A stretch of 63,623 nucleotides of DNA, counting the filler, from Stramenopiles sp. TOSAG23-6 (lineage: Eukaryota), in NCBI GenBank assembly GCA_900128565.1. It is 9 parts of 9 records of this genome, joined end to end, with 100 filler letters (N's around TTAATTAATTAA, not from the genome) between each part and the next. Parts side by side here need not be neighbours in the genome. Positions count along the whole stretch, not along the records: positions 1 to 9,804 come from LT636349.1; 8 more parts are not named here. One strand, given 5' to 3'. Made by a program: the position numbers and the translations under genes. The notes under the pieces are model-generated. The model was not told where the DNA came from and searched no databases. It saw only the letters and a program-made list of their open reading frames with translations. This document shows positions 1-62,256 of the stretch, one piece after another (position 1 is the first letter of the stretch; each line of letters opens with the position of its first letter).

Positions 1-55
1 TTTCGTACCTAACAAATTTAAGTTTTTTTTTTTGAAATATTTTTCCAAAATACAT
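1..55 (+). mobile_element. Introner-like intron, 3' part (ends ...AATACAT)
   Basis: CGTACCTAAC core, GAAATATTTT and AATACAT, followed by an in-frame PWWP exon at 56. Confidence 0.75.
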
Positions 56-427
56 CAACGTACTGGACGTTTGGTTTGGGTTAAAGTAGATGGTTTCCCG
101 GATTGGCCTGCGGAGATTTGCTTTGATATTTCAGAAAAGAAAGCGAATGCACATTTTGATTTATCGCTTGTTGTGTTTTTTGGCGATGAGGAATCTACAG
201 AGTTTCTTCATTCTCCAGAGGAAGATTTATCTCATTTTATTGGGAATGAAAATGATCCGTCTATATTACCTATTGGATGCCCTGAACGTGATGATGCGTA
301 TGAAACTGCTCTAAAGGCTGCATTGACAAGGAAGTTAGTTCTAGAAAATGAGCATGGCCCGAGGCATTCATTTCGTGCGAGAAAGAAACATGCAGTGACA
401 CCAGGTAATGCTCAAATAGTAGTATAA
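56..427 (+). CDS. PWWP-domain protein, last exon (5' truncated)
   Basis: LVWVKVDGFPDWPAEI...VVFFGD matches the PWWP pattern. Confidence 0.75.
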   Translation, partial: QRTGRLVWVKVDGFPDWPAEICFDISEKKANAHFDLSLVVFFGDEESTEFLHSPEEDLSHFIGNENDPSILPIGCPERDDAYETALKAALTRKLVLENEHGPRHSFRARKKHAVTPGNAQIVV

Positions 428-548
428 AAAAGTGACTTGACTGCAACTAAATTTTTGTGCTTTACAATTTAAAATTTTGATGTTTGTTTGCATATTCTCA
501 TAGTAAATGACACGGATTATATTTATCTTTATAGTTTATGTAGTACTT

Positions 549-1130
549 TTATCTTTGTACACCCATCATGTTTTTCTCTTCTAGAACTGACGCTGCAAAC
601 GTCGCTGGTGTCGCTGCTTTGAGGAAATTGTCTCCAGCGAAATGAGCAAATTTTGGGCAGTCAAGTGCCTTATCTGTACAAACAACATCCGCGCCAATCG
701 CATTTTTCAACGCCGTCATAAAATCTATCTCGCCGCTAAAATCTGCTTCGGGTCTAATATAACCGCACACAACTAGTCGTATTTCTTCACCATAAAAATC
801 TTCGGCAAATTCGTGCAATAAATAAGGTTCGACCACTTTATGTTGAGTTGCTTCAGTACCTTTAAAAGTTGGATTATGTCCGACACTTATAGCTGCTTTA
901 TATATACAAAGATCACTGTTAACATTTCCTACAGATGCCCAGCCACAATAAATTCCTGTATCCATTTTCTGAAGAGTAGAATACACCGCGGCTGAATTGT
1001 CTAGATTTGCAGTCGGCCAACCTAATTCTTTCGAACCCCGTTGGAAACCTTTTGCAACCGTTGAACAAAACCGAATCGGTGGGTCCACGAGACTGACTGT
1101 TCTATTTGCTACTGATTTGGTTGAAGCCAT
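549..1130 (-). CDS. RFK: Riboflavin kinase
   Basis: GFQRGSKELGWPTANL, SVGHNPTF, EPYLLHEF..DFYGE, GYIRPE motifs; ATG at 1130. Confidence 0.93.
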   Translation of the reverse strand: MASTKSVANRTVSLVDPPIRFCSTVAKGFQRGSKELGWPTANLDNSAAVYSTLQKMDTGIYCGWASVGNVNSDLCIYKAAISVGHNPTFKGTEATQHKVVEPYLLHEFAEDFYGEEIRLVVCGYIRPEADFSGEIDFMTALKNAIGADVVCTDKALDCPKFAHFAGDNFLKAATPATFAASVLEEKNMMGVQR

Positions 1131-1493
1131 GACGTAAACGATAAACAATATTATGTCTTGTTGACGCCTCAATGTAATGTATAATTTATAGGATAGAGTG
1201 GCAATTTGCAAAATTGTGTCGGTATTTGTATTTTATAGTATGTGTTTCAGGTTTCAGCGAAAAAGACGAAGACGAAGACGAAGCAAAGCAGTCAAAGACG
1301 TCAAACATTTTATTATTAATAGGGTTGGGTTAGGGTTTGCAATTTAAATTGGGCAAAATTAAAATTTCATAAAATTTTCAAATTTTTCGAAACCTCCGAC
1401 TCCGAGTTCACATCCTTTTGCCGAGGAGTAGTCTACTATATATACATTACGACTCACCTGTCAGAGCGCGTCTGAGTAAGAATACATTATACT

Positions 1494-2501
1494 ATGTCGG
1501 AAAGTGACGCACAAAATACTAATCTTGTAGATGAGGCAAAAGTTTCGAAGTCTGATAATTACACTGGTAATAGATCTTCACCCGTCGCAGAATCCGTAGT
1601 CGACAACGTTAAAAGTGAGGATTGTGAGGTATCTGTCGGAGACTCAACCAAAGAAGATATCGACAGAAAAAATGCAATGCTTTATCAACAGACTAGTTTA
1701 GAAATGTTTTTGCAGAAAAATCCTGATAGAGAATTGCTTCTTGAATGGAGAGACGACAAGTCAGGAATATGGAAATTAATATCGATCGTGACATATGCAT
1801 ACCTGCTTTTTTCACCTATCTTACCTTTACTTCCACAAATGGAAAGGAAATTTTTTATAGTACTCATTTGGATATTCATTACCATGCTTGTATGGTTTAA
1901 AATTGAGTACGATAATTACGCTGAAATTTGGTGGATTTGTTTCGCCAGAGGCATTATTGTCGAATTTCCCGATACTGATACATGGAAGGGTTATTTGGTG
2001 ACAAAACCTATAATCATAGCAGTGTTGACTATGTTCACCTTTGGAGTTGTGGCATTTCTAGGTCTTACATACAACAACGATGCGAATAGTTGGAAAGACT
2101 TCCATGTGTATGAGACCTCGTTTTTTCAAATTTTGTCAGCGTCGTTTGTGTTTGTTCTTACAAAAAATGTTGTCTGCTTGGAAGATTGTCAACACTTACT
2201 CTCAATCAACCGTGCACTGAAATATTTGAAAGATCCATATTTGCTAACAAATAAAGGCTTTAAAAGCGTACATATAACTCAAATACAGAAATATGTATTT
2301 GATATACAAAGTAGACATTTTGTACGAAACCTACCAAATTTTTTACATAGCCATTCAAATCAAGAAATGCAGATTAAAAAATTTAGCTGGAATCATATTC
2401 ATAGATTAAGTCACAAACCTGTACAAGCTAATACGTTGAAGATTGGAGGAGGAATGAGGCTACTAGTATTTTTCCGGACAAAAAAAAATCTTGATGAATA
2501 A
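1494..2501 (+). CDS. Multi-pass membrane protein of unknown function
   Basis: 335-aa intronless ORF with about four hydrophobic segments. Confidence 0.65.
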   Translation: MSESDAQNTNLVDEAKVSKSDNYTGNRSSPVAESVVDNVKSEDCEVSVGDSTKEDIDRKNAMLYQQTSLEMFLQKNPDRELLLEWRDDKSGIWKLISIVTYAYLLFSPILPLLPQMERKFFIVLIWIFITMLVWFKIEYDNYAEIWWICFARGIIVEFPDTDTWKGYLVTKPIIIAVLTMFTFGVVAFLGLTYNNDANSWKDFHVYETSFFQILSASFVFVLTKNVVCLEDCQHLLSINRALKYLKDPYLLTNKGFKSVHITQIQKYVFDIQSRHFVRNLPNFLHSHSNQEMQIKKFSWNHIHRLSHKPVQANTLKIGGGMRLLVFFRTKKNLDE

Positions 2502-2562
2502 AAAACTTGTAAAATACTTTTCCGGACAAAAAAAAATCTTGATGAATAAAAAACTTGTAAAA
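2469..2562. repeat. 48-bp-period tandem duplication spanning the stop codon of the 1494..2501 gene
   Basis: TTTCCGGACAAAAAAAAATCTTGATGAATAAAAAACTTGTAAAA occurs at 2471 and again at 2519. Confidence 0.85.
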
Positions 2563-2678
2563 AACTTCCAATATAAATTATACTTTACTAAAAACTACGT
2601 ACTATGCATAACCATACTAGAGTTATGAAATAATACTAAAATAGGTGGGGGCTGGAATCTATATAATATATAGTAGCA

Positions 2679-3440
2679 TTATTTTGTTTGATACCCTCTA
2701 CCAGTGTGTGATCTAGGATTCTGAAATAATTCAGAAAGCTCTTCTAAGGAAACATTTTTTCTAAACATCTGAGTTTTACCTAATCTAGGATGGTCCAAGC
2801 AGGTTTTTACAGTCCCCGTCATGTATTTTGGAAAAATATTTCCCAAAAAAAAAACTAAAATTTGTAAGGTACAAAATTACGTATGAAAAAAACATTGAAA
2901 TTGAAAAAAAAATAAAACATACGTATAATAAATCTCGAACTTACAAAAACCATCGTTTGTGTCACCTTCAAAAGCAACAACTCGTGATTGAGGATTAAAT
3001 GCAACTTCATCGAGACCATATATAGCAGCATAGTGGCGAACGTCATCTAAATCCAAACCAGAAGATTGTAAGTCATTTATGATATGCCTCAAAAATCGTT
3101 CATACCTTTGAGCATTTTGTAAACCACAAACACCACGTGTGCCATTAGGAACCCTATAAGAACCAACAACGTTTTTCCATCCCTTGCATCTCAGAATTTT
3201 TACCTGGCATGGAAATCTCCCCCCCCAAGCAACATGTGACCAAGTAGCCGCTTCGCTATCAGCGATGAAAGGACCACAAAGTATCTTACTTTCAACGTTA
3301 TATAATAGCAATGGGAATCCCGGGGAAATGCGATTGGAACGACACGAATCTGAAAAACTCCCTTCTCTTGCTCCGAAAAGTCCTCTATTGTAACACTCCT
3401 CTTGTGTTTCATTATTACAGCAAAAAATATATGCTGCCAT
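2679..3440 (-). CDS. DCD-domain protein with a C-terminal YYTTGT..HPR..G.TQ.FR domain; exons 3440-2923 and 2820-2679
   Basis: YIFCCNNETQEEC..GLFG and FPCQV are DCD-like; splicing gives EIYYTTGTVKTCLDHPRLGKTQMFRKNV..NPRSHTGRGY. Confidence 0.7.
2821..2922 (-). mobile_element. Introner-like intron, GT-AT, 102 nt
   Basis: AC|GTATGT...TTTTGTACCTTAC...AATACAT|G; contains an in-frame stop; removal restores YYTTGT. Confidence 0.85.
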
Positions 3441-3648
3441 TATCACGGGGATATTATAGACTAAAAGGTAAACTTTTATTATATTTAGCGGTAGTCTTCC
3501 CCGAGGGATGCAATAATAACAATGATGATGGCGAAGTTGGCCAACTGCGCACTGGATGAATTTTCGAATTTTAAATTCGTCGTCGATGTCGGCCAAGACA
3601 ACCTGGGCTAGTCAAGTAATTGTAGGTAGCTAGCTGTCATAGAGGCTA

Positions 3649-4515
3649 ATGCGTGTACGAGTTATTTTCCCGGGCAATGAAGCATTGGCTTTATCTCTAG
3701 ATAGTAATCTAGAATGCTCTATGTCACACTTGAAAGCTGCAATTTACTCAAAATTAGATACTAAAGGCACGACTGTGATTTCTCTTTTCCATGACGGCAA
3801 ACAACTTGACGACGCCAAAGAAACATTTGCCTCTCAAGGGATTTCCGGGGGAAATGGATTAATTGTAGTTGTAGCTGTGATGCAGAAAAACGATATTGAA
3901 ATGTCTACTCGTTCTAAACACTCTTCGGACGAGCCTATTAATGTCGAAAGTTGTTCTTCTCCTGTTTCTGCTCCAATATCAACAAATGTGAAGTCACTAA
4001 TTGACTTAGGTTTCTCAACAACGTTAGCTACCCGGGCTCTAGAGATGTGTGACGAAGATGTCAGTCAGGCTGCAAACCTATTATTCTCAGGAAGTATCAG
4101 TGATATTCATGCAACACATTCGAGCCTTGGTACTAAAACTAGTGCTAATGAAACCAATAAAAAGTCGAATAATAAGTTAGCTTGGCTTCGATTTGATCCC
4201 CGCTTTTCCCGTCTGCTTAAAACATACAAAACTGATCCTTTTTGTGTTGGCGAAGTTCTGCATGATATTGGTGAATCACAGCCAGACCTATTGCAACTCA
4301 TAAATACAAATCCAAAAGAATTTATTGAATTAGTTAACGAAAGTACTAACACTAGCCCTAACCCTATACGTGAGGAAACGGTACCAGTAAACAAAAAATA
4401 CCGAAAACGAAAAAGAAAAGAAAATAGCAAAGATGATGGTATATCCAAGTCCGTAAAACAGGATGTAGTGTTTGATTTGTGCGAATCTTCTGATGAAAAT
4501 GAGCTGTACATGTAA
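3649..4515 (+). CDS. UBL-UBA-XPC-binding/STI1 protein (RAD23-like)
   Basis: N-terminal ubiquitin-like domain, UBA (LIDLGFS..ATRAL..AANLL) and QPDLLQLINTNPKEFIELV. Confidence 0.75.
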   Translation: MRVRVIFPGNEALALSLDSNLECSMSHLKAAIYSKLDTKGTTVISLFHDGKQLDDAKETFASQGISGGNGLIVVVAVMQKNDIEMSTRSKHSSDEPINVESCSSPVSAPISTNVKSLIDLGFSTTLATRALEMCDEDVSQAANLLFSGSISDIHATHSSLGTKTSANETNKKSNNKLAWLRFDPRFSRLLKTYKTDPFCVGEVLHDIGESQPDLLQLINTNPKEFIELVNESTNTSPNPIREETVPVNKKYRKRKRKENSKDDGISKSVKQDVVFDLCESSDENELYM

Positions 4516-4784
4516 AGTAGAACTTTGAAAACTTTCATTTTAGAGGTTATCAATTTATAATTGGGGTTTTTTTCGTACGAAATTTTGTGCCTAACCAAAA
4601 AACAAATCCGTCTTCCCTAATAATTTAGAAAACTATATATGTACAGTTTTAAAGAAAAACTATCCCTTGCCACATATCATCATTTTATAATATAAATGCT
4701 ATAAATGTGAAAATAATATAAATAGTTCTAGAATATTACCTATAAGCATATTGAAAAGTCAACTGCTTTTCAATATCTTTCTTA

Positions 4785-5141
4785 TTATCCAAAGAAATCA
4801 CCAAAGTGATTTGACTTTGGACGGTTTGCTTTGGTTTTAGCCAAACTTTCCATTTCATTTTTTGTAACTGGTTCAAGTATCATTTGATGCATTGGTACAA
4901 CAGCAAGAAGCTCAAGTCTATTACATTCTCTACATATATTCGAAGTCATAGGGGTACCGCAAATATCGCAAACTCCACCGGTATCAGTAAAAGAAAGTGG
5001 GATGGCTTTTTTATCTACAGTGTGTTGCAGAATTGCCTGAGACGCAATAGAAAAACCTCTTCTTGAACAAGAATAATCACATTTTCTTGAGCTGCAACTA
5101 ATAGGTCGAGTAAATGTTTGTTGAATCTTTGTGCGAAACAT
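4785..5141 (-). CDS. Small hypothetical protein with a CxxC..CxxC motif
   Basis: ATG-initiated 118-aa ORF containing CDIC..CREC, divergent from the CCP gene. Confidence 0.45.
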   Translation of the reverse strand: MFRTKIQQTFTRPISCSSRKCDYSCSRRGFSIASQAILQHTVDKKAIPLSFTDTGGVCDICGTPMTSNICRECNRLELLAVVPMHQMILEPVTKNEMESLAKTKANRPKSNHFGDFFG

Positions 5142-5324
5142 TTTAAATAATGAGAAAACTTTATCCCAGAGAATCTCAGGTACTAAGTCTTGAAGAAATC
5201 ACTAAAATGAAGCGTTAAGAACTGAATATATTTTTTTCTGTTAAACGTGGAGGAACTTCTACGTAACTGCCTCACAAAAATACGTCTTTCCGTGGACTTC
5301 GCCGTCATCTCCGTAATTTTGCAG

Positions 5325-8323
5325 ATGGCAAATTGGAGGCAATTCTCCCCAGGGGGGTTCAAAGCCACGACTTCCCTTCCCGCGTCCTTTTTATCAGATG
5401 CTAAGCCAGTTCGTCGCAATATACCGAGAAAAATAAGTGGTCCACCAACTAGTCAAGGAAATTCACCCAAAATCAAACAAAAGAAACATCACTCACGGTT
5501 AAATATTGGCAGTGCTGATTCAGCTTTGAGAGAATCATGTCATGATTCATTACCACCCCGTAATACTGTTTCAAAGCCATACACTTCTTCCCCTAGGCCT
5601 AGAAGGAAAACACCAGTCATACCTCCTCGCAACGCACCCCCTTTGCAACTATATAGTTTTCTTACTCGCACAGAAAAACTCGCAACTGATGAAGTCGAGC
5701 CCCCAAAGACAGGTATAGATGCAGATTTTATATGGCCACCCCCAAAACATATTAATATAGTTCCTCCAAAACAAGAACCATTAATGGAGGCCCCACAAAA
5801 TCTCCTTGCCTCAATCTTAAAAAAAGAAACTTTTCGCGTTGTTCAACCTGAAAAACTCATCAATGAAGTTGTCTATGACTCAACTGATGTTTCTCCGTCA
5901 AACAGTCAAAAACGACATAAATTTAATAGTAGCTTTAATAGAACTCCGGGGAAGGCAAAACAAAATAGTGTTTCCCCATGGTATACCCCAAAAGGATCAG
6001 ATGATTCTGTGCTCGTCTTCGAGTCTCGCTTTGAAAGTGGAAATCTCCGACGTGCCATCCAAGTGTATGAAAATGAGTACGATCTTATATTAAAACCAGA
6101 TTTTAATACAAGAGGACATACACAATGGTATTATTTTTCTGTATCCAATACACGGCATGGAAGAGCATACAAATTTAATATCATTAATTTAGTTAAAAAT
6201 GATTCATTGTATGTTTTATTTTTTTTCAAATTAGATTTTTTTTTCGTACGAAATTTTGTACCTAACGATTTTTTTTGTGAAATATTTTTTCACAATACTT
6301 GTATAATTGGGGAATGAGGCCATGTATTTTTTTCATCATGATTTTTTTTGTTTTTTTTTATAGGAAATTATGTACCTAACAAAAAACATCAATTTTTTTG
6401 AAATATTTTCCAAAAATACATTGATGTACTCAGTAAAAGATTCTGAAAATTCTAGTTATTCAAGCCCAACACAAAGTGAGCAAAGGATAGGATGGAAGCG
6501 ATGTGGTCGAGATATTTGTTATTACCAAAATGGTATGTCCAGAAAATCTGGGTCTTTTTTTACGTGTACCTTTACGACAGAATTTCCACATTCTAATGAT
6601 ACGGTCTATGTATGTTTTATTTTTTTAATTTCGAATTTATTTTTTTCATACGAAAGTTTGTACCTAACGATTTTTTTTGAAATATTTTTTCAAAATACAT
6701 TTAGCATACTGTTATCCTTATACTTACACCGACCTCCGTAGATACTTACAAAAATTAGAGTCAGATCCCATGAGAAGCAAAACTTTTCTTCGGCGATCGT
6801 TGTGTACTACACTTGCAGGTAACACGTGTGATTTAATTACTATAACCACATTCGGTTCCGATGCAGAGTCAATGAAGTCTCGTAAAGGTGTTGTTGTAAC
6901 TGCGAGAGTCCATCCTGGTGAATCTAATGCTAGCTGGATGATGAAAGGATTTTTAGATTATCTCACAGGAAATTCGTTGGATGCTAGAATTTTACGGGAT
7001 AATTTTATATTTAAAATAATTCCAATGTTAAATCCTGATGGAGTTATTGTTGGTAATTATCGATGTTCACTCGCCGGTATTGATTTAAATCGTATTTATA
7101 TGGTTCCCTCTAGAAAGCTCCATCCTACAATATTTTATACAAAACAAATGATTAAACGATTTACTCAAGATCGAGAAGTAGTTCTCTCGGTGGATTTGCA
7201 TGGACACTCCAAGAAGATGAATGTTTTCATGTATGGTTGTCAAAATAACAACGATCCACATTTAAAGGACCGGGAGAAAATATTTCCAAGAATGTTATGG
7301 AAAAATTCTTCGATATTTTCATTTCGGGATTGTAATTTCAAAGTTCAGAAGGCAAAGGCCTCAACCGCACGAGTTGTTATTGCAAAAGAACTTGGACTAA
7401 TCAATAGTTACACGATGGAGGCAACATTTGCGGGCGCAAATTTTGGGCGTCTTAAAGGTTGTCATTTTTCTACAAGAGATTTAGAATCTATGGGTCATTG
7501 TTTCTGTGATACAATTCTAGATTATTGTGATCCCGACCAGACTAAGGTAAAACTGACCATGAAAGAACTTCGCATGATGTGTCGTACCTCATCTAGAGTG
7601 ACAGATGATGATAGTGATTGTGGGTCTGATTCGAATGATAATGTTGAATGGGTCAAGTCAGAAATAGGTCAAAAAATCAAAAAGAAATCAAAATCACACA
7701 AGAGAAAAATCCGCAAAAATGGTAAAGCTAAAAAAGTTCTGTCTGCAAGGAAGCATCACAAGGAATCTACGAATACTTCAGAAATTAAGCCAAGGATTGC
7801 TTCACCAAAATTATCGCGCCGTAGGCCGCGCAATCATGCACAAATGAAGAAACGAGCAATTCAATACAATAAAACTCAAGATAATACTTATGAAGATGCA
7901 GCTGTAGCTGCGGCGGCCGATCTGATGAAAAATAGTACAGGTATAGTGAATAATGTCTGGGAGGCATTTAAATCTGGTAGACGTCCTTTAAATAGAGGTA
8001 AGCGTCCTCCTGTATCATTAGCGTCAGATACAAGTAAAGATCAAACGGAATCCCGAAGTATCTTGAAGGTAAGCAAGTTAAAGCAACGTAGAAAGAATAG
8101 GAGAAAAGGTAAAAAAGGATTGTTCAAACAAGGTGGCAGTAGCCGGAGTGATAGATCGGACGATAGGAGTTGGGAAGATGAACAAAGCGCTGAGCTGTCC
8201 GGCAATGTCACGAAAAGTTTTATACAGATTGGGACAAATGGAAGATCTAAAAATTCTCCGAGCCCGATGGATATAGGTATGGGTGTTCTAGAAACCTCAG
8301 AATGTCTTCCATATATACTATGA
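5325..8323 (+). CDS. Cytosolic carboxypeptidase (M14D, CCP/Nna1/AGBL family); exons 5325-6208, 6301-6323, 6422-6609, 6701-8323
   Basis: FESRFESGNL, TQWYYF, spliced DSLYNWGMRPLMYS and DTVYLAYCYPYTY, ARVHPGE, MLNPDGV, GIDLNR, DLHGHS, SYTME. Confidence 0.93.
6209..6300 (+). mobile_element. Introner-like intron, GT-TT, 92 nt
   Basis: TT|GTATGT...CGTACGAAATTTTGTACCTAAC...AATACTT|G; TT on both sides. Confidence 0.8.
6324..6421 (+). mobile_element. Introner-like intron, GT-AT, 98 nt
   Basis: AT|GTATTT...TGTACCTAAC...AATACAT|TG; restores RPLMYS. Confidence 0.85.
6610..6700 (+). mobile_element. Introner-like intron, GT-AT, 91 nt
   Basis: AT|GTATGT...TGTACCTAAC...AATACAT|TTA; restores YLAYCYPYTY; the next AG (6704) is out of frame. 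Confidence 0.88.
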
Positions 8324-8518
8324 TATACTATGAAAAAAATAAATTTAAAAATCCGATGACATTATGAAAAAAATAAATTTTAAAAAATCCGATAAATTTA
8401 GCAAAAAAAACACTGAATCTTTTATTATACTTGATATCACTGCCTTTCACGTTTCAGATATAAAACTTTATCAGTACATTAAAACTAATACATATAAATA
8501 GTCCATCCACAACTAGTG

Positions 8519-8615
8519 TTGTACGCATTGTGAGATTCCGTACCATTTTTTCGTACGTAAAAAAAATTGAAAATTAGGTACAAAACAATGATACGGAATC
8601 TCACAATGCGTACAA
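8519..8615. mobile_element. Intergenic MITE-like inverted-repeat element sharing the intron core motifs
   Basis: Perfect 24-bp IR TTGTACGCATTGTGAGATTCCGTA (8519-8542) / TACGGAATCTCACAATGCGTACAA (8592-8615); the loop contains TTTTCGTACG and TTAGGTACAAAA. Confidence 0.7.
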
Positions 8616-8647
8616 ACCCTAACCCTAACGAATGATTTTACATATTC

Positions 8648-9579
8648 TTAGACTTTAGACAATTCTGTATCAACTAATTCATTTGATTTTATATCATTTG
8701 TGCCTGGAGATTCTTTCGATACAGTTTTTATGACATTGTGAGTTCCTTCTTTTTCCTTGGGTAAAATTTCTTCTTGCTTTTCACAGGTTGAACCACTAGG
8801 GTTAGGGTTAGGATTAGATGCTAGAGTAGTATTGGTGTCACTTAAGGACAGGGCTCCGCTTGGTTTGGCTGATTTATTCAACGCACTTGAATTTGATGAT
8901 ATAGGATTCGTTGATGTGCTATCTTTACTAGAGGTTGAATCAGTGGTATTATTACTATTTGATCCAACACCGGGTGTAGATTCATCTCGAAAGGGTGGCC
9001 AATTAGAAGAGTTCCGGGCATGCATTGTGAGAAAATATTTCATTTTTTTTGTTAGGTACAAATTTTACTATGAAAAAATATATACGAAATTGAGAAAAAT
9101 GAAAACGTACATGTATCGGCACTAATCTCTCATTCAGGCTAGGTTCCAGTTTATATTCTGTTGGTGTAAAGTTAAACAGCGGCGGAAGTGGGGTGCCGTC
9201 GTGTAATGTGGTTCCGGGGACTCGTAATTCATCAAAAAATGGATGCAAGCATGTATTTTGAAAAATATTTCAAAAAAAAAGATTAAATTTGTTAGGTACA
9301 AAATTTTTTGAAAAAAAAAATTCGATTTTTTTGTAAAAAAAAAATAAAACATACATGCTCGAATGGGTGTCAAACGACTTTTGGGTTCATATTTCAATAA
9401 CTCATCAATAAACTGAATTGCTTCATCAGGAACTTTTTCGTACTTAAACACTTTAGACCAAGAACAAGATTCAATTTTAGGAAACTGAAAATCAGTGTAA
9501 TTTGGGTTCATTTCGCGAATTTGCTTCCTAGTTGGAGTACCTAACACTTTAATAATTTCAACCAATTGATCGACTCCAC
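8648..9579 (-). CDS. GSK3: Glycogen synthase kinase 3, 3' part; exons 9579-9355, 9250-9111, 9019-8648
   Basis: [33 protein letters not shown], spliced [22 protein letters not shown], spliced LVPIHAR. Confidence 0.92.
9020..9110 (-). mobile_element. Introner-like intron, GT-AT, 91 nt
   Basis: AT|GTACGT...TGTACCTAAC...AATGCAT|GCC; restores PIHAR. Confidence 0.85.
9251..9354 (-). mobile_element. Introner-like intron, GT-AT, 104 nt
   Basis: AT|GTATGT...TGTACCTAAC...AATACAT|GC; restores ACLHPFF. Confidence 0.88.
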
Positions 9580-9804
9580 ATGTATTGTAAAAAAGATTAC
9601 ATTCGAAATTTGTTAGGTACAAAATTTCGTACGAAAAAAAAAAATTGAAATTCATAATGAAACCGTTGTCGAGAAAAAAATATATAAGGAACGTGGACTT
9701 ACTCGACATGTACGTTTTTTGGTCAAATCATGAAATTTTTTTTAATTTTTTTTCGTACGAAATTTTGTACCTAACCAAAAAAAAAAAAAAAAAAAAAAAA
9801 AAAA

Positions 9805-9904
9805 NNNNNNNNNNNNNNNNNNNNNNNNNNNNNNNNNNNNNNNNNNNNTTAATTAATTAANNNNNNNNNNNNNNNNNNNNNNNNNNNNNNNNNNNNNNNN
9901 NNNN
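9805..9904. other. Artificial contig linker N-TTAATTAATTAA-N (also about 19708-19807, 29605-29704, 39495-39594, 49358-49457, 59219-59318, 60688-60787, 62157-62256)
   Basis: Identical 100-nt spacers, each carrying stops in all six frames. Confidence 0.97.
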
Positions 9905-22800: not shown

Positions 22801-25800
22801 GGTCGTTATGCTTCGGTCACGAAATCGGAGGCAGCGCTCGAGACTGTACAAATATTTATTGAAAAGGCCACACGACATCCAATACTTCGTTTAGGCGCTG
22901 GTCGATTTGTAAAGGACAACTCTTCAACGATTCTTTCTAAAAAGAAAGAAGATGCACAGTACGCTACGGTATTCGCACTTCATCCCGAGATATTAGGTAA
23001 CGTGTCACTGGGCCAGCTATAACTCGAGGTAAAAATGCCAATGGATGTGACCGAAATGTACCTGTTTCTGAGACCGTTTCACAAAAGTTTGGTTTGCGAC
23101 AATTCACTGTACGTTTGCCTCGTGATCTGTCATATGAAATATCGGTCAATGTCAAGGATATGATTTCTTGGGAAGCAATTCTTCATGGCACATTCTCTAA
23201 AGTATTTGCAGCAGATAGNNNNNNNNNNNNNNNNNNNNNNNNNNNNNNNNNNNNNNNNNNNNNNNNNNNNNNNNNNNNNNNNNNNNNNNNNNNNNNNNNN
23301 NNNNNNNNNNNNNNNNNNNNNNNNNNNNNNNNNNNNNNATCAAAGTCGAAGGTTTGGCAAAGGATTCAGGATCAAGGCAATATAAGGAAGGTTCTGCCTT
23401 TAGCCAGGCTGGAGGTTCAGCTGCAGGTATTGTAGTAAGCCATAAAGCCGACGCAACAGATGCTATACTTTTTGTAACCACAGAAGATCAAGTGAAGTCT
23501 ACGGCTAATGGTGGAGGTGCATTGACGATGATAACTGTAGATGGTGAAAGTGTTGCAGCTGGCACACCAACTGCAATAAAGAATCATCAATCCCAACGAG
23601 CTGCTATCGTTGGCACGCCACCTGATGTTGTCGTCTCCATTGAAAACGGCGACTCATTCTTAAAGTCTCCAACAAAAAGCAAAGATTCAAAAGGCGTTGA
23701 AAATAGCATTGGCTCTCCTTCATCAGTTCTCAATTCCTCTGGAGAAGCCACTGTTATTCGCTCAGTGGAAAAAGATGAGAAAGCCATAGCCATTCAAATC
23801 ATGGTGAAGAAAGGAAAATTCACGAATTTAGTTCCTTTCTATATCGATAATGCTAAAGTTGGTCGTGCTGAAAGATTGAGTGGCGAACCAAAATATACTA
23901 CTCACCAAGGTAATGTTGGAACGTATTTAAATTCTTTACCAGCTATTCCTGTCGCGGCTGATGATTTAGAACCAGAAATGGAGTTTATGTTTAGAAAGAA
24001 GGCTACATTAAAAACAGCAATACAGGTTGCGAGTGAAGCTAATTCTTTACGCGAGTGTACTAGAATTGATTTTAGTAAATTGTACGGTGTCAAAATGGTT
24101 AGTGATAAAAACCCCGCAACTGGTAAGAAAATGAATTCGATATTGTTTACAATATCTGCTTTTGAAGCATATGCTACTGAAGACAATGGCAAGGAAGTCC
24201 AAGAAATTGCAGGTGGTTTGCCGAAACTCCTCTATGTACCCGGTACGATTCACACGAATGATAATATGGCATTTTCGACGGAGTCCAGATTTTCAATCAG
24301 TGGCGGTATTTACGATGAATCAAAATCATCTCATACTTCTACAATGTGTACAAGCGCAACTGGCTGCGTATTATCAAACATTCTAGCACATGCTTGCGGT
24401 GTAGTGGGAACAAAACCAGAAGAAGCTGGGATGGTAACTCAGCCTGCAGATTGTCAAATCGCTGGACAAACTTTGGAAGGAACTTTTTATCAAGGACTCA
24501 TTTCTCGATTGTCTGATCCCGAACGGTATAAACCATTCAGTAAGCGTATGGAATTTTTCTTCACGCCATCTACTGATGATCTACCGACAATGATTCAAGT
24601 GAATGCTTTGAAGACTGATACATCCGGTGTAGATGTTGTTGTTGAAGGTGATGTTCCCCTCACACGAAATCAGGCCATTAAGCTCCCAGAGTACGTGCCA
24701 TTTGTCATTATTAGAGATCCACCAGGTGATGGATCGTTCACTACCTGGCGCAAGGATACCACAATGTCTGTTAATGTAGAGGTCGGTTTTGGCAAAGCTC
24801 AACAAGAAAGTCATGAAATGAATTTAGGATTTGGTGCTGCCGAGAGTATCAGAGCGGACGCTGATGGCGATATTTCACCAGTAGCAATGGGCTTTGGAGG
24901 AATCGGTGCTGTACTCGGTCTTGAAATTAACGTATTTGATTATAGAATGATGGGAGGTTGGCATTACATGGATGCTGGTCAACCGGGTACCTATGCATCA
25001 GACGTCGATCGGGTCATGCATTCGGGCATGGAAGTTCAATTTACAGCGTCAACCGAATACAGTACGTCACCAAATGCTGGTGGAGGTGTATTTCAGGATT
25101 TGATCGTTATGCCGAGCTTGTCTATTTTGACAATGACTGCATTGCCAATTCGATTTCGCGATGACGACGTATTTTGTAATGGTGATGCAACCTGTCTTGG
25201 AAAGCCTAATAGTCAGTGTGAAGGTTTTGCAGCGTCGGAAATAAGCACGTGGTCTCTAATTGGCGATGTCACAAGTGAAGCGGCTGTAAAGAAGAAACTG
25301 GATGATTATGAAGCTGATATGGATCTTTTTGACGGGAAAGAACCACATGGAGATATTATGGGAAATAGTCTGACATCATTGAAGCTGAGAAATTATGCAG
25401 TAGCCGCAATTAAGGATGATACGTGGAACGCAATTACGGTTCATACTGTGTATGATATTATTCGAACTCGTATTCCACAATTGCAAGACCGCTGCTTGGA
25501 AGAATGGAACGATCTCCGTTGTAATTTTGCTGACCAAGGCGATGTTGATCTAAGTAAATTTGTCACAGGTTGTGGAGGAACGAAATGCGCGGGATCAAGA
25601 TACTTTGATGATTTACTTCTACATTTCAAGCATTATGACGCTACTTTAAAAAGGAATTGGTGTAAAATACCGGTTTGCAAAGATGATAAAGGACAGGACA
25701 AACTGTGTGGTTTAACAGGTAGTGTCAAAGGCGATTCGTGTAAGAATGTATCGATCAAAAAGACATATACTCCAGCAATGAAAGCCGCAAATGAAGATAA

Positions 25801-27787
25801 TACTGATGCAACTCGAGCTCAAGCTCGTTTAATGGCAACATTGGATGCTATTAAAGGATGGATAAGAGTGCTCAAGTTGAATGAAGAACTCAAGGAGAAA
25901 GCAAAGCCAGTTGGTGCTGAAGCGCTTGTTGCAAGTCCATTATTGCAAGGCGAGCAAGGTTTCTCTGCAAATCCTGATGCTCCAGGATTTTACGTTGGTG
26001 GCAATGAAGCTCTTGAACAGGCGCAAAATGGATTGGTGGGATCAAAATTGTCGGATCAATTAAGTGACGCAGCTGATGGAGCAAATCCCCATGCGGAGCT
26101 CAACCTTATGTTTGGATCACAATATTGTACTGGAGCTACAGACAAAGCCAGTTGCGACAAACATGCTTCTCATGGATGCTATTATCAGCGGTACTGTAGA
26201 GAAAATTGCTATATTCATTGCCAATTTAGTCCGAGCAGAAGAAACAATTATAAAACGTTTGAAGTTACTGCCGATACAAAGCCTCTTACTTCTGATGGTT
26301 ATGATGCAGACGATGTAGAGCATTGTGGTCACTTACCTAATCAGCAATACGCAAAGTACGCTGAGAAATGTTCTCAGGCAACCAAGTTCCATCCAAAGGG
26401 AGAAGCTTTGGACAGAATGATGCAACCAAATCATTTAGGATCTCCAGAGTACACTGAAAGGAAGAAAGCTTCATTCAGAGGAGGCAACATAGCAAATGTG
26501 GATCCACCAACAGTTGGCTCAACTAACGGTAATGTAATGGGGCTTGCTTCGAAGAGTGCTGCAAGTATTGTAGCATTCAGTGGGGGTGGGCAGGTAGCAA
26601 AATATTCATACACAAGTAAACAAACATCCGCTTTATCTCTTCAATTTCAACACCATCAGAAAGATGTTAAGGATAAATATATGACTGGTTACTGGAATAT
26701 ATTCTTGTTAAATATTGAGTCTGATGGTGATTGGAAAGATGCATTTCAAAAGCTAACGAGCAACACTCAGGCTGAGATGCGTTCTGAGGAAAGAGCCGTT
26801 GAAATTACATTAAGCGATAGTTCTATTGGTGATTATTTTGATGTCGAGATTATGAGAGATTCAATGTATGGGACGCCCACATTTGTCACGAGAGCGGGTC
26901 GATCAAAGTGTCCTCACGAGGCGGGTACAGATGCTCGTGAACAGTTTGATGTACAATTTCCAAGTGAATTAAATGAGCTGGATATCGTTGGTGATAAGTT
27001 ATCAAAGAAAGCTCGAAGTGTTGAACGTCAAAATGGCGCCGCCGATGGTGACTGTGCAAGTTTCTATCTAGAATTGATCAATGAAACACCATACAATGAT
27101 GACCTTGAACTNGTATTTGATTTAATTCCTCCCCTTGCTTCCAAATATGGCACGTATGATACAACGGGTCTAAGTCTAGAAAGTAAGATAATGACGACGT
27201 TCGGTACCCAAGACATGCCACTTCTCCTAAACGATCAAAGAAGGAAAGTGCGATTTGATATTTGCCCGACCGGTGACGAAAGAGATTTCGCTGCAAGAGA
27301 AAAACGTCTTGCTGGCGAATGTTCAGATGGAACGAAGAATACCGAAGTTGCATGCACTGGTACATGGGATGATGACAATGATGTAAATACAGATGAAATT
27401 CCTAGAGTTTGGACAGCTGGGGTTAAAGATGCTCTTGGAAATGATCATTCAGGTATGTTGTACTGTAACTTAATGGTCAGGGTATCATCGAAATGTGAAG
27501 ATCAATTGGGTAATTGGCAACAGATCCCGAAAGGGTACTTGTGGGATTCTAAAGAAATGACAGATGTTTGTTCTGCATCTGATCCTGTCGCCAAACGAAC
27601 TTTCCCTAAAACTGCTGGTTGTTGGTCAAAAGAACTTCCAGAGGTTCTTGATGGTAGTGCTGATATTTCTCGAGGTTTACAGTTTGGATCAGAAACTCCT
27701 CTACGAAGAGAGGTGTTAATCCCATGTTTAAGTTTCCATAAAACCAAGAATTTGTGTGAAACTTCTCCATGTGAAGGCATGCGATAG
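19808..27787 (+). CDS. Giant (>2500 aa) intronless extracellular-type protein with a PAN/apple-like domain and an RDPPG-motif region; broken by several frameshifts and an N gap
   Basis: Overlapping same-strand ORFs start at 19937, 20622, 21014, 21832, 23094 and 23354; CQAKC..NCFAWGF; IIRDPPGDGSF; FSGGG; GDYFDVEI..YGTPTF.T.AG.SKCPHE. Confidence 0.6.
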
Positions 27788-29552: not shown

Positions 29553-30082
29553 GTACGTTTTATATGAATTTCTAATTTAATTTTTTTTTCATACGAAATT
29601 TCGTNNNNNNNNNNNNNNNNNNNNNNNNNNNNNNNNNNNNNNNNNNNNTTAATTAATTAANNNNNNNNNNNNNNNNNNNNNNNNNNNNNNNNNNNNNNNN
29701 NNNNATAGATATCAATGATTTGATTGATAGACATGGTGTGGCGTCACCTGATTTGACAAATGAATTAAACCGACTTTTTGATACAAAAGATTTAAATGAT
29801 TTTGACAATAGTACAACTATTTTAGCTCTGAACAAAGTTGACACGAGACCTGAATATAACAAACTTTGTGACAAACATTCAAATGCTTTACATATGAAAG
29901 ACCCAATGTTTAAGCCTCTGTAGGATATTTTATTCAAAAACATATTCATTACGATGTTTAACCATTTCATGTACAGATAACTCAAGGACAGGCATAGATA
30001 AGCTTGTAGAATGCATCTCAAGTGAAATAGTCAAGTTAACTGGTATAGAAAATATGAAAGAAAATTCGCTAACAAATGGTAG

Positions 30083-39494: not shown

Positions 39495-39680
39495 NNNNNN
39501 NNNNNNNNNNNNNNNNNNNNNNNNNNNNNNNNNNNNNNTTAATTAATTAANNNNNNNNNNNNNNNNNNNNNNNNNNNNNNNNNNNNNNNNNNNNTTTCAA
39601 AAAAAAAAAACTAAAATTTGTTAGGTACAAAATTTCGTACGAAAAAAAATAAATTCGAAATTAAAAAAAATAAAACATAC

Positions 39681-41984
39681 ATGTTTCCCATGTCTATCTA
39701 CACCTTCTTCAAAAGCTGTTCTCTCTTGGGAAGTCCAAGTTAAACCGACATCTGAACGTCGAGTGTTTGGAATGACAGACCAAGATCGAAAAGATGTATC
39801 CTCAATATCTTCATCATCACTTGCCTTGATTTTTTTAAGAGTTGAACCGTCTCGACCTTTTCCATCACCAAAACATTCTTCTTCTTTATCTTTGACATTT
39901 AATTCTTTTATAGTGTTTTTTTTAATGTTACTCTCATTATCACTAGAATCTTTTCTATTTATAAGAGATGTTACATCTGAATTTGACTCAGATGGAGGCA
40001 TAACATCAACGCTAAGTGTATCAGACTTCTCCCCCTCTTCCTTTGTATTCATTTTATGCACAGATGATGAAGACTCTATAGGGTTAGGGCTAGAAGTATT
40101 TACTATTAATTTGGGTTCAATTACTTCACCACCATTTGCAGTATGACACCAATACGTATCACGATTTGTTGATTCTAAAGCTAACGTAATATTTTCTACT
40201 GAACATTCTGGAACATTCTTTCTCTTCACTTGGTAGCGCTTACCAATACGAGGCCACATGAACATGTATTTTGGAAAAATATTTGAAAAAAAAAAACTAA
40301 AATTTGTTAGGTACAAAATTTTTATAAAAAAAAAACTTCGAATTTGAAAAAAAAATAAAACATACATCTTACCATTGAGCACTTTCATTCCATCAGGGAG
40401 AACTACAGGCTTTATACTAGCTGGTGTTTCTGTACTTTTTTGATCATTCGTTTTCTGAGAATTAGGGTTGGGGGGAGCTACAAAATCTTTAACAGTATCA
40501 ACTATTTGTGAATTTGTACTATCTTCAGAACGAGTGCGACCTCGACTGTATTTTAGAAAAATATTTCAAAAAAAAAACTTAAAAAATTGTTAGGTACAAA
40601 ATTCCGTACGAAAACCAAAACAAAAATCAAAATTGAAAAAAAATAAAACATACATACCAACACGCCATCGTGGACTATTTGGCGACTCAGACTTTTCATT
40701 TTCAATATTTTTCTTTGAAGGTTTCGGAGTTTTCACTTTTTCCAAAAATATTGCACTCTTACTCTTACTATTTCTTCTTTTTTTTGTGTTTGTCTTTTTC
40801 TTAATTTTCTTCAACATACTGGTATTTCTTCGACCTAATCCACCTTTTGTTCCAGTATTCTTTTCAATTTGTTTCAACATATCAGTCAGATCTTGATCGT
40901 CATTTAAGGTATTTTTATTCAAAATTTCCCGCGCTCCCATCGGAAACGAACTTGGTGCTGCGGTCACTTCAATGTCATTTTTATAACCGAAATTTTGAAC
41001 CGTTTTATTTTTACCAACACCAAAGTACCGTGCACCTCTGTCATAGGCCATTGCTGCCAACCTATCGGAAGGGAAAACACCTAATTTTCTTTGTAATCCT
41101 TTTACTGTAATTCGAGCTAACCAACGATTTTTACCGAGACACATCACTCCTCTATATACAAGTTTAATTCTATTTTTTGTACCATCTTTGTTTTGTTTTT
41201 TTTGATGTTTATTATTTTTATCGTCTTTTTTGGGGTCTACTGTTGCTACACTATGTCTAATCTGCCTCTTTCGTTGTTTTTTTTCTATTTCTTCATAATT
41301 TGTTTCATTCTTAGATGAACGCGTTTTCTTTCTAGCGGGTTGAACTGCTTTAGTGTTTATATGATTAGCAGTTGCTTTAGTTTTTTTATTAATATTTTTT
41401 CTACTCGAAGGGACTGTTTGAGGAGCGTTAGGGTTAGGGACAACACCGACTTGTATATTATCTTTTGAAACAGCCTTCTGACTACTAATACTTTTTTGCT
41501 TTTCGCTGTTTTCAACATTAGCTGATATACTATCTAAAGCACTTCCATCATTTGCACTTTGTGAAGATGATAAAGCAAAAGGAAGCTTTGCACTACTAAG
41601 GGACGATGAGCGTATCTTAGCATCTTTTTCCTTTTGTTCCTTTTCATGCTCAGCCGCAGTCGCTGCAAGAAATGCCCGAAGTGCAGCAGGTCCCATGGCA
41701 TCACCTAAACTAGCTCGCCAACCACTAGTTGAATTTCTACCTCTTCTTCTTCGAGTGGAACCAGTTGAAGAAGTAGCTTGAAGTTTTGAACTTTTAGTAG
41801 ATCCCCTTGGCCGCCCCACTTTTTTATGAACGCTTTCCCTTCCGGTTTTCTTCACATTTTCATCATGATCACCAGAAGCCCCTGAAACCTTTTCAGTATC
41901 TCTATTACGACGTTTACTATTGTTTGGTGATGATGCAGGAGATGATTTAGATCCCGAACGGTTTGTTTTCCGCACTGCGTCCAT
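39681..41984 (-). CDS. AT-hook/AP2/ELM2-like/SANT transcription regulator, 3' truncated; exons 41984-40654, 40545-40366, 40263-39681
   Basis: GRPRG; YRGV...WLARI..LGVF....AAMAYDR (AP2); PRIGKRYQ (ELM2-like); WTSQERTAFEEGV..HGK (SANT). Confidence 0.8.
40264..40365 (-). mobile_element. Introner-like intron, GT-AT, 102 nt
   Basis: AT|GTATGT...TGTACCTAAC...AATACAT|G. Confidence 0.78.
40546..40653 (-). mobile_element. Introner-like intron, GT-AG variant, 108 nt
   Basis: AT|GTATGT...CGTACGGAATTTTGTACCTAAC...AATACAG|T; matches the family consensus except at the last base. Confidence 0.85.
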
Positions 41985-42445: not shown

Positions 42446-43920
42446 ATGAATAGTGAATTCAGTAAAGGCAAGAATGTTGTTATCAAAGCTGGAACAATAA
42501 TGGAAACCTCAAAAAACGGGGAAAATGTTTCAAAAAACATTGTGATGCCAACAAAAAATATACTAAATAGCCTAATACTACCACAGCCTACTCCTCAAAT
42601 AAAACCCACTACCGAAGAACTAAAATTACAGAGTATTTGTCGAGATCAAATTAGGGAGATTATATCGTTGAGATCAGAACAACGCCGCATGTGTGGAAAC
42701 ATAAAAGAACTAAATTCTGAACGAAATGAGTTACGAGAGACACTGCAGAAACAACAAACAAAGTTGGAAAAAAGTGCTGTAGAATTAGAGACTAAAGTTG
42801 GTTACTACAAAGATGAGGTTAGCCAACTTCAAACGCAATGTTTTGAATGTAGTGAAACAGTAGTGCATGAAGACCTTGATGATGCAATTTACCAGGAAAA
42901 TCGAGTAAATGAATTTGTCAGATTATTAGAATTACTGAAAGATCGTCGTGAAGCGTCTACGATAGAGGAAGATCATCATTTAATACTTGAAGATAAGCTA
43001 CATAAAAAAGTGACTGAAATATCAAATGAATATTCAAAAAAACTTGAAAATTCATGGGAAAACCGGGACTCTCTTCTCGCTGAATTAGAGAACAAAACGG
43101 TAGAAATCAACTCGCTTTCAAAGAGTAATTATAATTTAATTAAATCAATGGAGGATGAAATGTATAGTTTTGAAGAAACATTAGAAATGAAATACTCTAG
43201 AGAAAACAAAGTATATACAAAGGAAATAGAAAGCAAAATGGAATTCAACATGCGAGGAAACCAATTTGAAGTTATATCTGAGTTACATGATATTCAAAAT
43301 AAGTATCAACGTACGTTTTCAATTTCATAATTTTAATTAAAAAAAACATTTCATACCAAATTTTGTACCTAACGATTTTTTTTACTAAAAAAAAAAAATA
43401 TTTTTCAAGAATAGTAACATGTGAAGAACGAGATGAGATAAAATATGTTGCAACAGAAACAATCCGCCAAATGCATCATGATGTAAAAAATTTTGAGATA
43501 GATATTATTGAAAAATTAAAAAGACAAAAAAAAAAACATGAAATTCAACTTGCTGCAGCCATTTCTAATTTTAATTTGAAAGAGGAAAAGAATAAAATAA
43601 CACAAAGAAGTTGTATAGACGTTGATAAGAAAATAAGTAAAGAGTGTGATTTAAATGTAAGAAATATTTGTTTTAGAAAAAATGTTTCCTCTAAACATAG
43701 TTGTAATAGTCCTAATGAGAAAAGTCAATGCAGTGAGTATAAAATCGACGAACCTCTAGAAATTGGTGCAATCACAAATTACAAATTCGACGAACCTATA
43801 GAAAGGACTTCAAATATTGGAAGTCTTCAATGTGGTAATATAGATGATAATCGGAGGAATTATTCGCTTTGTAAAGCAATTGAGAAACTGCAAAATATAG
43901 CATTACTTGGTCCACTATAA
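42446..43920 (+). CDS. Coiled-coil protein; exons 42446-43310 and 43415-43920
   Basis: Heptad-rich ORFs joined by a family intron. Confidence 0.7.
43311..43414 (+). mobile_element. Introner-like intron, GT-AG variant, 104 nt
   Basis: AC|GTACGT...TGTACCTAAC...AAGAATAG|TA; in frame. Confidence 0.75.
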
Positions 43921-49299: not shown

Positions 49300-49457
49300 A
49301 TATATTGTGAAAAAATATTTTTTTTTTGTTTTTTTTTTTCGGTAAAAAAAAAATTGTNNNNNNNNNNNNNNNNNNNNNNNNNNNNNNNNNNNNNNNNNNN
49401 NTTAATTAATTAANNNNNNNNNNNNNNNNNNNNNNNNNNNNNNNNNNNNNNNNNNNN

Positions 49458-59218: not shown

Positions 59219-59318
59219 NNNNNNNNNNNNNNNNNNNNNNNNNNNNNNNNNNNNNNNNNNNNTTAATTAATTAANNNNNNNNNNNNNNNNNNNNNNNNNN
59301 NNNNNNNNNNNNNNNNNN

Positions 59319-60687: not shown

Positions 60688-60923
60688 NNNNNNNNNNNNN
60701 NNNNNNNNNNNNNNNNNNNNNNNNNNNNNNNTTAATTAATTAANNNNNNNNNNNNNNNNNNNNNNNNNNNNNNNNNNNNNNNNNNNNTACAAAATTTCGT
60801 ATGAAAAAAAAAATATTTTTGAAAAAATATTTCAAAAAAAAATTCTAAAAAATTTGTTAGGTACAAAATTTTCAAAAAAAAAATAAATTCGATTTTTTTT
60901 GTAAAAAAATAACTAAAACTTAC

Positions 60924-62040: not shown

Positions 62041-62256
62041 TAGTATGTTTTCATTATGAATTTCTAATTTATTTTTTTTTGAAAATTTTGTACCTAACAA
62101 TTTTTTTTTTTTTGAGTTTTTATTTCGATACGTTTTTCATTATGAATTTCAAATTTNNNNNNNNNNNNNNNNNNNNNNNNNNNNNNNNNNNNNNNNNNNN
62201 TTAATTAATTAANNNNNNNNNNNNNNNNNNNNNNNNNNNNNNNNNNNNNNNNNNNN

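Follow-up and report, generated by a model that had tools for sequence, protein, structure and literature searches.

Bursts of intron gain are at present best explained by introners, families of repeated and recently mobile spliceosomal introns, and few cases have been caught while still polymorphic. The stretch of DNA analysed here, called the window throughout, comprises 63,623 nucleotides, filler included, of the Stramenopiles sp. TOSAG23-6 assembly (GenBank GCA_900128565.1). It carries an introner family that breaks the AG rule of 3' splice sites in 20 of 23 introns.

Introners with their own 5' splice site and a 3' site taken from a target-site duplication are described, in the passages of PMC9860276 and PMC11282704 drawn on here, from Chrysochromulina sp. 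(4-bp duplication) and Micromonas pusilla IE1 (3-bp duplication). As far as those passages go, the window family is likewise a short, non-autonomous sense repeat in exons of a marine microbe, is very abundant, and has its 5' site at its first base; the piece removed would likewise be the element plus one flank copy, leaving the mRNA unchanged. It differs from them in an A-T rather than A-G acceptor, a putative duplication of 2 bp and the absence of a clear terminal inverted repeat. By the criterion of Gozashti et al., as worded in the cited part of PMC9860276, its near-invariant flanking pair is an unproven duplication.

In the tunicate Fritillaria, the last three intron bases repeat a Y-A-Y triplet found upstream of the 5' site, and introns end most often in 3'AT (excerpts of Soo et al. 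2026, PMC13326754). A passage of the review PMC11282704, citing Henriet et al. 2019, gives the non-canonical introns of Fritillaria borealis and F. pellucida an origin from miniature inverted-repeat transposable elements (MITEs). Judged by these excerpts, the systems share a dominance of non-AG acceptors, a Y-A-Y ending and a flank repeat read as the source of the 3' site (PMC13326754). The main classes in Fritillaria are AG/AC and AG/AT, whereas 21 of the 23 introns here start with GT, within a classical GTAYGT; and many diverse families occur there in an animal, compared with one family here in a protist-looking host.

The introner elements of the parasitic dinoflagellate Amoebophrya, in the portion of Farhat et al. 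2021 (PMC7789003) used here, have hairpin-forming inverted repeats of 8-20 nt and direct repeats of 3-5 nt, and their terminal dinucleotides are not fixed. The window family resembles them in being made of repeated introns with non-canonical ends, short direct repeats over the exon-intron borders and no internal transposase, and differs in having no hairpin, a 2-nt repeat and ends fixed as GT..AT. For ascomycete introner-like elements, spread by reverse splicing has been proposed, and canonical ends without a flank repeat are reported in the relevant passage of PMC9860276. Those elements are also sense-only repeated introns without terminal inverted repeats and serve below as the model for spread without duplication; unlike them, the window family shows a flank pair, includes an antisense copy and has an empty site for its TT/TT copy. 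U12-type AT-AC introns are treated in a part of the review PMC11282704. Here 15 of the 23 copies can be read as AT..AC, with long rigid 5' and branch boxes as in U12-type introns; unlike those, 10 of 23 copies do not fit AT..AC, GTAYGT stands in place of a U12 5' box, and 32-50 nt separate the branch box from the intron end.

As the cited portions have it, introners that co-opt a 3' site from a duplication (PMC9860276, PMC11282704) and non-AG ends traced to a flank repeat (PMC13326754, PMC7789003) are already in print. What sets the window family apart is that a classical GT 5' site is paired with an A-T acceptor in one dominant family, with a flank pair of 2 bp and a protist-looking host. A literature search returned no paper on 'GT-AT' with 'introner'; the per-genome supplementary family lists (Gozashti et al. 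2022, 2025) lay outside that search and may include the family. The nearest printed cases for GT-AT introners, on the excerpts cited, are Fritillaria and Amoebophrya. With its short introns, its one family and its mix of AT and AG acceptors, the window forms a compact system in which to ask how a spliceosome of the major type copes with a last base other than G, and whether the splice site is set by the chemistry of insertion.

The introner family

The open reading frame (ORF) of a cytosolic carboxypeptidase gene is broken by three short AT-rich inserts, at 6209-6300 (flanks TT-GTATGT..CAATAC-TT-GTAT), 6324-6421 (AT-GTATTT..AAATAC-AT) and 6610-6700 (AT-GTATGT..AAATAC-AT). The 23-nt exon between the first two codes for YNWGMRP. 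After excision the product reads ..NLVKNDS-L-YNWGMRP-L-MYS.. and ..DTVY-LAYCYPY.., colinear with 19 homologues and without gaps, and human CCP5 structures match the exons on either side of the intron sites. The top homologues are from protists or metagenomes (65-68%, the maximum identity being 68%), with animal CCP2 at 42-58%; going by these protein matches, the host looks like a protist.

The same unit recurs throughout the window. The box GTACCTAAC, with at most one mismatch, occurs 44 times where 6.62 are expected (maximum among 100 shuffles, 14), and a profile made from 12 copies matches 32 places at E ≤ 3.4e-4, the 12 seeds counted in. Seventeen full copies are 64-92% like the majority consensus, and since the likeness spans the entire length and not just the splice signals, the family consists of repeats rather than of introns with similar signals. 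There are 23 complete introns with both ends fixed, 91-267 nt long and in different genes, and fragments besides. All 23 are in sense orientation to the host gene; there are also nested copies, a lone antisense copy (9710-9804) and several fragments in non-coding sequence.

That these are old immobile introns, alike only through long rigid splice signals, is hardly credible. The 5' site, branch box and 3' end are indeed all strongly conserved, as they are in intron-poor eukaryotes. Set against this are the likeness over the whole length, with long identical stretches shared between copies outside the signals, the existence of fragments, nested copies and an antisense copy, thousands of metagenome contigs that match the element at ≥90%, the polymorphism of one copy, and relatives whose ORFs pass through the three carboxypeptidase sites.

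The copies in the window are listed below. Letters give, in order, the exon pair before the intron, the first and last pairs of the core, and the last two intron bases; AT/AT denotes that both pairs are AT.

Copy 27, 1-55, plus strand: 3' part alone (..ATAC-AT), at the window start
Intron 1, 2821-2922, minus strand: DCD-domain gene; AC-GT..AC-AT, flanks mismatched
Intron 2, 6209-6300, plus strand: carboxypeptidase gene; TT-GT..AC-TT; 6-nt direct repeat TTGTAT; missing from a contig of the DNA run X2 (see below)
Intron 3, 6324-6421, plus strand: carboxypeptidase gene; AT-GT..AC-AT; behind the 23-nt exon; kept in X2
Intron 4, 6610-6700, plus strand: carboxypeptidase gene; AT-GT..AC-AT
Intron 5, 9020-9110, minus strand: GSK3-like kinase gene; AT-GT..GC-AT
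Intron 6, 9251-9354, minus strand: GSK3-like kinase gene; AT-GT..AC-AT
Copy 7, 9580-9702, minus strand: 3' end normal (..ATAC-AT), 5' end decayed; within a longer intron that reaches the contig end
Copy 29, 9710-9804, plus strand: sole antisense copy; kinase gene, upstream of copy 7; AT before it; 3' end lost at the contig end
Intron 22, 12825-12985, minus strand: TT-GT..AC-AT, flanks mismatched; diverged
Intron 8, 16794-16908, plus strand: AT/AT
Intron 28, 17857-18123, plus strand: GT-GT..AC-AT, flanks mismatched; composite, with two branch-box units
Intron 24, 18356-18459, plus strand: AT-GT..AT-AG
Intron 31, 19030-19224, plus strand: AT/AT; diverged, with tandem repeats inside
Copy 9, 39595-39680, minus strand: AT before the 5' part; 3' part lost in a contig linker
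Intron 10, 40264-40365, minus strand: AT/AT; 102 nt without an in-frame stop, so that retention would add 34 residues and not truncate
Intron 11, 40546-40653, minus strand: AT-GT..AC-AG, canonical GT-AG
Intron 12, 43311-43414, plus strand: AC-GT..AT-AG; the most diverged, 64% to consensus; the frame demands removal of the core alone
Intron 13, 44753-44945, plus strand: AT-GT..AA-AT; 5' part duplicated internally
Intron 14, 45005-45107, plus strand: AT/AT
Intron 15, 46788-46886, minus strand: actin-related gene; AT-GC..AC-AT
Intron 16, 49048-49201, minus strand: AT/AT; interior diverged
Intron 17, 50356-50447, plus strand: AT/AT
Intron 18, 50546-50639, plus strand: GT-GT..AC-AT, flanks mismatched; top profile score in the family
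Intron 19, 52768-52863, plus strand: AT/AT; upstream of a condensin Cnd3 exon
Intron 25, 59951-60070, minus strand: AT-GT..AT-AT; the usual AC missing at the end
Intron 20, 60524-60625, minus strand: AT-AT..AC-AT; sole copy with a core beginning in A
Copy 21, 60788-60923, minus strand: AT before the 5' end; 3' end merges into another copy and a linker
Non-family GT-AG intron, 48621-48751, minus strand: 131 nt; no match to the family profile; AT before it; ACTAAC-type branch box; contains CCCTAACCCTAA

The internal signals are uniform. The first two intron bases are GT in 21 of 23 introns, GC in one and AT in one; the first six are GTATGT in 8, GTACGT in 6 and close variants in the remainder. 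Of 24 readable 5' ends, 10 begin with GTAT and 8 with GTAC. A branch-like box of the TACCTAAC type lies 32-50 nt from the intron end (18 copies, those with no later motif of this type). ATAC closes the core at 17 of 22 3' ends, and AC precedes the final pair in 18 of 23 introns. The final pair itself is AT in 19, AG in 3 and TT in 1. Y-A-Y forms the final intron triplet in 18 of 23 (CAT 17, TAT 1) and the triplet before the 5' site in 12 of 23. The non-family intron at 48621-48751 suggests that the organism splices AG acceptors too.

The reading we favour, with a probability of about 0.55, is that of a non-autonomous introner that inserts mostly at A-T with a 2-bp duplication and uses the duplicated pair as its acceptor. 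The element, about 90-105 nt long and probably still active, would live as a spliceosomal intron. It would supply its own 5' splice site, GTAYGT, from its first base, and its yeast-like branch box TACCTAAC and T-rich tract would presumably act as further splice signals. Integration would take place at the DNA level, mostly at A-T, through a 2-bp staggered cut, and the downstream copy of the duplicated pair would become the last two intron bases (..AC+AT). Splicing would then take out the element with one copy of the pair and leave no scar, and the spliceosome would accept A-T besides A-G as an acceptor. In its widest form, the proposal is that one active family with an A-T acceptor from a 2-bp duplication has replaced most introns of a free-living marine microbe, and that the major spliceosome accepts U in place of the last G, independently of Fritillaria; this falls somewhat short of an even chance. 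If true, the population would be segregating for natural splice-site mutants in the form of new insertions at non-AT sites, the TT copy being one.

A weak antisense profile match at 12209-12269 (minus strand, E = 3.4e-4) lies inside an ORF for a WW/zinc-ribbon protein and may be a chance match or an exonised fragment. Searches for further copies gave none: a metagenome scan with a 14-nt box gave at least 119 loci, none of those listed carrying the element by nhmmer, the pattern being too short; a scan of viral sequences with a 19-nt box gave 0 matches; and a protein collection probed with read-through translations of the element gave no match in the near or shorter length classes.

An empty site in the carboxypeptidase gene

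One DNA metagenome run (X2) and three RNA runs (X5, X6 and X8) were aligned to positions 1-9804. X2 covers 30 of 30 bins, with genes on both strands included, and the unique stretches are mostly at depth 6-12, a pattern expected of DNA. In all, 8460 X2 contigs were placed on this 9.8-kb stretch, and the 7 longest records listed (8 pieces) lie on unique sequence. Over the copies, X2 depth is hundreds to thousands of times the unique depth, a figure that cannot be taken as a copy number and to which other organisms may contribute.

X2 record 5 (1791 nt, depth 8.8) runs from 4733 to 6206 and then straight to 6299-6612, with no letters between. Exactly 92 nt (6207-6298, the TT/TT copy) are missing, the intron 23 nt downstream is retained, and the sequence of the empty allele, ..CA-TT-GT.., contains one TT. 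The first-pass annotation had described this copy as TT-GTAT...ATAC-TT and had proposed looking for empty sites with a single flank pair. The flanks are as it described them, although the direct repeat is in fact 6 nt (TTGTAT), and an empty site of the proposed kind is present, with one TT, no element and the neighbouring intron kept. Introns 1, 3 and 4 are present in X2 at the depth of their flanks, so one of four assessable sites is empty. Over the 9.8 kb, X2 has 40 listed and 16 unlisted single-base differences from the window (about 0.5% of sites, our estimate), and because of these it represents another strain or population and not the same cell. The family has therefore moved, or been lost, very recently at 6209.

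The polymorphic copy is the only one whose flanks are both non-AT and equal. This favours duplication, because duplication produces the TT/TT arrangement without mutation and models without duplication need one.

The difference at 6209 could instead be a loss in the X2 lineage, by precise deletion via TTGTAT or by replacement with spliced cDNA, a possibility to be taken seriously though on balance doubtful, and one compatible with or without a duplication. The TTGTAT repeat of intron 2 is the longest of the family (the 21 other tabulated copies have at most 4 nt) and may have mediated a precise deletion, so that the polymorphism may be a loss; and since no copy has a poorer acceptor than its CTT, removal could be favoured. 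Replacement by cDNA, however, would usually also remove the neighbouring intron 23 nt away, which stayed. Intron 2 is also second best against the family profile, and in a very abundant family one of four assessable sites differs between genomes only about 0.5% apart; both points speak for gain.

The metagenome-contig proteins P0003, P0006 and P0014 (63-68% identical) read straight through all three carboxypeptidase intron sites. If they are plain ORF calls, they come from relatives without an intron at these sites. A ciliate-type internal eliminated sequence was considered and rejected, introns 1, 3 and 4 being present in X2 DNA at flank depth.

Splice register and flanking pairs

When the core plus two bases is excised, the ORF stays open over the joint in 21 of 22 introns, the exception being intron 3 with its 23-nt upstream exon. 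Among the 23 introns, the register GY..A[T/G] is broken by 2 (intron 2 with its TT end, intron 20 with a core that starts AT), AT..AC by 10 and TG..CA by 7. Where the flanks are AT/AT, the three registers yield identical mRNA. The first of them puts the cut before the classical GTAYGT, and on sequence grounds the best reading is GT..AT in 19 introns, GT..AG in 3 and GT..TT in 1. The junctions with mismatched flanks fall outside conserved domains.

Introns with boundaries two bases further left, AT..AC, removed by the minor (U12) or the major spliceosome, are quite improbable. A first A and a last C are a known workable intron pair, in the 15 AT/AT copies both registers yield the same mRNA, and intron 20 starts ATATAC.. 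when so read. Yet 10 of 23 copies break AT..AC compared with 2 of 23 for GT..A[T/G], the hexamer at the GT register is GTATGT or GTACGT, a classical major-type 5' site, in 14 of 23, and three copies end in G and are then plain GT-AG introns. In U12 introns the 5' box is RTATCCTT and the branch box, TCCTTAAC, stands 10-20 nt before the intron end; the family lacks the RTATCCTT box and has its branch box at a distance of 32-50 nt. A search for small nuclear RNAs gave no Rfam match in the window.

The earlier claim that splicing removes the element and one flank pair, and so creates non-AG acceptors, agrees with the open frames, the colinear homologues and the non-AG acceptor in 20 of 23 introns, although no spliced RNA is seen among the matches listed.

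The exon pair before the intron is AT in 17 of 23 introns and AC, TT or GT in two each. Across the 24 cases with a readable 5' flank, AT is found in 19; with an AT dinucleotide frequency of 0.096 in the window, the binomial P is 1e-15, and the enrichment is far beyond chance. The first-pass annotation had counted AT before 17 of 24 complete copies; the 17 stand, and the complete introns number 23. It had further proposed to compare the upstream pair with the terminal pair, holding that a lack of correlation in non-AT cases would count against its view. In the window the pairs are AT/AT in 15 introns, TT/TT in 1 and mismatched in 7, which comes near to such a lack. Its claim that a duplicated AT serves as the acceptor is thus favoured by the TT/TT copy and the single-TT empty site, and disfavoured by the mismatch in seven of the eight copies that are not AT/AT.

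Several observations, besides the direct repeat of intron 2, weigh against the favoured reading. Just 1 of the 8 copies other than AT/AT has matching flanks, the seven mismatches being AC/AT, GT/AT (twice), TT/AT, AT/AG (twice) and AC/AG, and when 3' ends are shuffled among copies (n = 22) at least one non-AT match arises in 9% of trials (permutation P = 0.09). The best-scoring copy, intron 18, is mismatched (GT/AT). The non-family GT-AG intron at 48621-48751 likewise has AT before it, and the downstream exon begins with G in 14 of 23 cases; these two features fit a splice-context or insertion-site preference and not duplication. The inverted ends span only 4 nt (6 nt if the AT pair is included), GTAT and ATAC occurring together in 8 of 20 copies, and RNA folding of six copies gave z-scores of -2.0 to +0.2, with no fold signal. 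Among 30 ORF pieces from the 63-kb window there is no transposase, integrase or reverse-transcriptase family, and the 25 longest inverted pairs in the window are opposite-strand copies, AT-rich low-identity pairs or linkers, with no terminal repeats flanking an ORF. Finally, on 1-9804 no RNA contig that joins exons is found among the matches listed for X5, X6 and X8, whose uncovered parts are uninformative on splicing, and X5 records 10 (2867-3041) and 15 (8799-9052) span an exon-intron border unspliced.

Element sequences are over-represented relative to exons to about the same degree in the three RNA runs and in X2. The excess in the RNA libraries could be carried-over DNA, unspliced RNA or stable excised introns.

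The same introner family with GT..AT splicing and no duplication, the mobile unit being the entire removed piece, is unlikely but keeps appreciable weight. The route would be reverse splicing and recombination of the intron, or a TG..CA-ended DNA element placed between A and T, and the upstream AT would reflect either a preferred insertion site or the exonic portion of the 5' splice-site consensus. Flanks common to nearly all copies carry no locus-specific signal, the case termed "ambiguous" in the cited part of PMC9860276, and seven of the eight copies outside AT/AT are mismatched. Variation is somewhat greater at the outer positions than further in (-2 non-A in 3 of 24 and +2 non-T in 3 of 22; -1 changed in 2 of 24 and +1 in 2 of 22). 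The AT before the non-family intron, the sense orientation of 23 of 23 complete copies, and the want of a real terminal inverted repeat and, among the 30 ORF pieces, of a transposase point the same way. On the other side, the polymorphic TT/TT copy with its single-TT empty site needs an extra mutation in a young-looking copy, the antisense copy and non-coding fragments fit DNA-level insertion better than reverse splicing into mRNA, and the sense bias is explicable by selection in a gene-dense genome.

As to the favoured reading, six of the seven mismatched copies are one substitution from AT/AT (the exception is intron 12), and the number of changed flanks is about what decay would give in copies 8-36% off consensus, by our estimate. 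Because AT is its own reverse complement and is common to most copies, it cannot tell duplication from insertion-site or splice-context preference; the methods caveat of Gozashti et al. 2022 (PMC9860276), in the part cited, likewise treats families whose flank is common to all copies as ambiguous. The locus-specific match rests on the single TT/TT copy, and the 2-bp target-site duplication is plausible, not proven. From these data we infer splicing at the RNA level, a 2-bp duplication as the general rule, a DNA-level mechanism and the direction of gain.

A longer duplication (ATG or ATGT) was dropped, the downstream G being present in 14 of 23 cases and GT in 6 of 22, which extends the repeat in some copies only. 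The ends of the claimed GTAT..ATAC terminal inverted repeat do recur, but more loosely (GTAT in 10 of 24, ATAC in 17 of 22) and over 4-6 nt only, short of the roughly 6-10 nt or more expected of a DNA transposon with terminal inverted repeats or a MITE. A transposase-encoding partner, which the annotation had proposed to look for, is not found among the 30 ORF pieces of the window. Tc1/mariner elements have a TA duplication and long terminal inverted repeats; a MITE derived from them was rejected, the pair being AT and not TA in 17 of 23 introns and long inverted ends being absent. Helitrons end in TC..CTRR, and a Helitron-like insertion between A and T was rejected for the absence of such ends.

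Other features of the window

The window is AT-rich (GC 0.23-0.42 per 2 kb), with tightly packed eukaryotic genes. Among them are the cytosolic carboxypeptidase, a p300-type acetyltransferase, condensin Cnd3, a GSK3-like kinase piece, TFIIF-beta and an IP3-receptor N-terminus. The window is a string of separate contigs, about 9.8 kb each and later about 1.4 kb, and not a single molecule, because the N blocks are six-frame stop linkers, each of 44 N, TTAATTAATTAA and 44 N:

9805-9904, linker
19708-19807, linker
29605-29704, linker
39495-39594, linker
49358-49457, linker
59219-59318, linker
60688-60787, linker
62157-62256, linker

Several contig ends bear element copies, as expected if the assembly breaks at the repeat.

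At 8521-8613, between the convergent carboxypeptidase and kinase genes, a perfect inverted repeat of 19-22 nt surrounds about 55 nt with an antisense, introner-like branch box. This arrangement is present once in the window; it may act as a hairpin terminator, or it may be related to the family but have genuine inverted ends.

The telomere-like 11-mer CCTAACCCTAA occurs 8 times in the window where 0 are expected:

8618, plus strand
8802, minus strand
13053, plus strand
17135, plus strand
18679, plus strand
33795, minus strand
41428, minus strand
48726, minus strand

Several copies belong to the sense strand of long ORFs and encode N-P-N-P there; one is inside the GT-AG intron 48621-48751 and one adjoins the inverted repeat at 8521-8613.

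Between 19760 and 27787 on the plus strand, long ORFs in different frames overlap, with no intron-like sequence at the overlaps:

19760-20689, plus strand, ORF
20607-21137, plus strand, ORF
21005-22000, plus strand, ORF
21790-23022, plus strand, ORF
23001-23435, plus strand, ORF
23219-27787, plus strand, ORF

The overlaps could be frameshifts from assembly errors in one giant PAN-domain gene, or something else.

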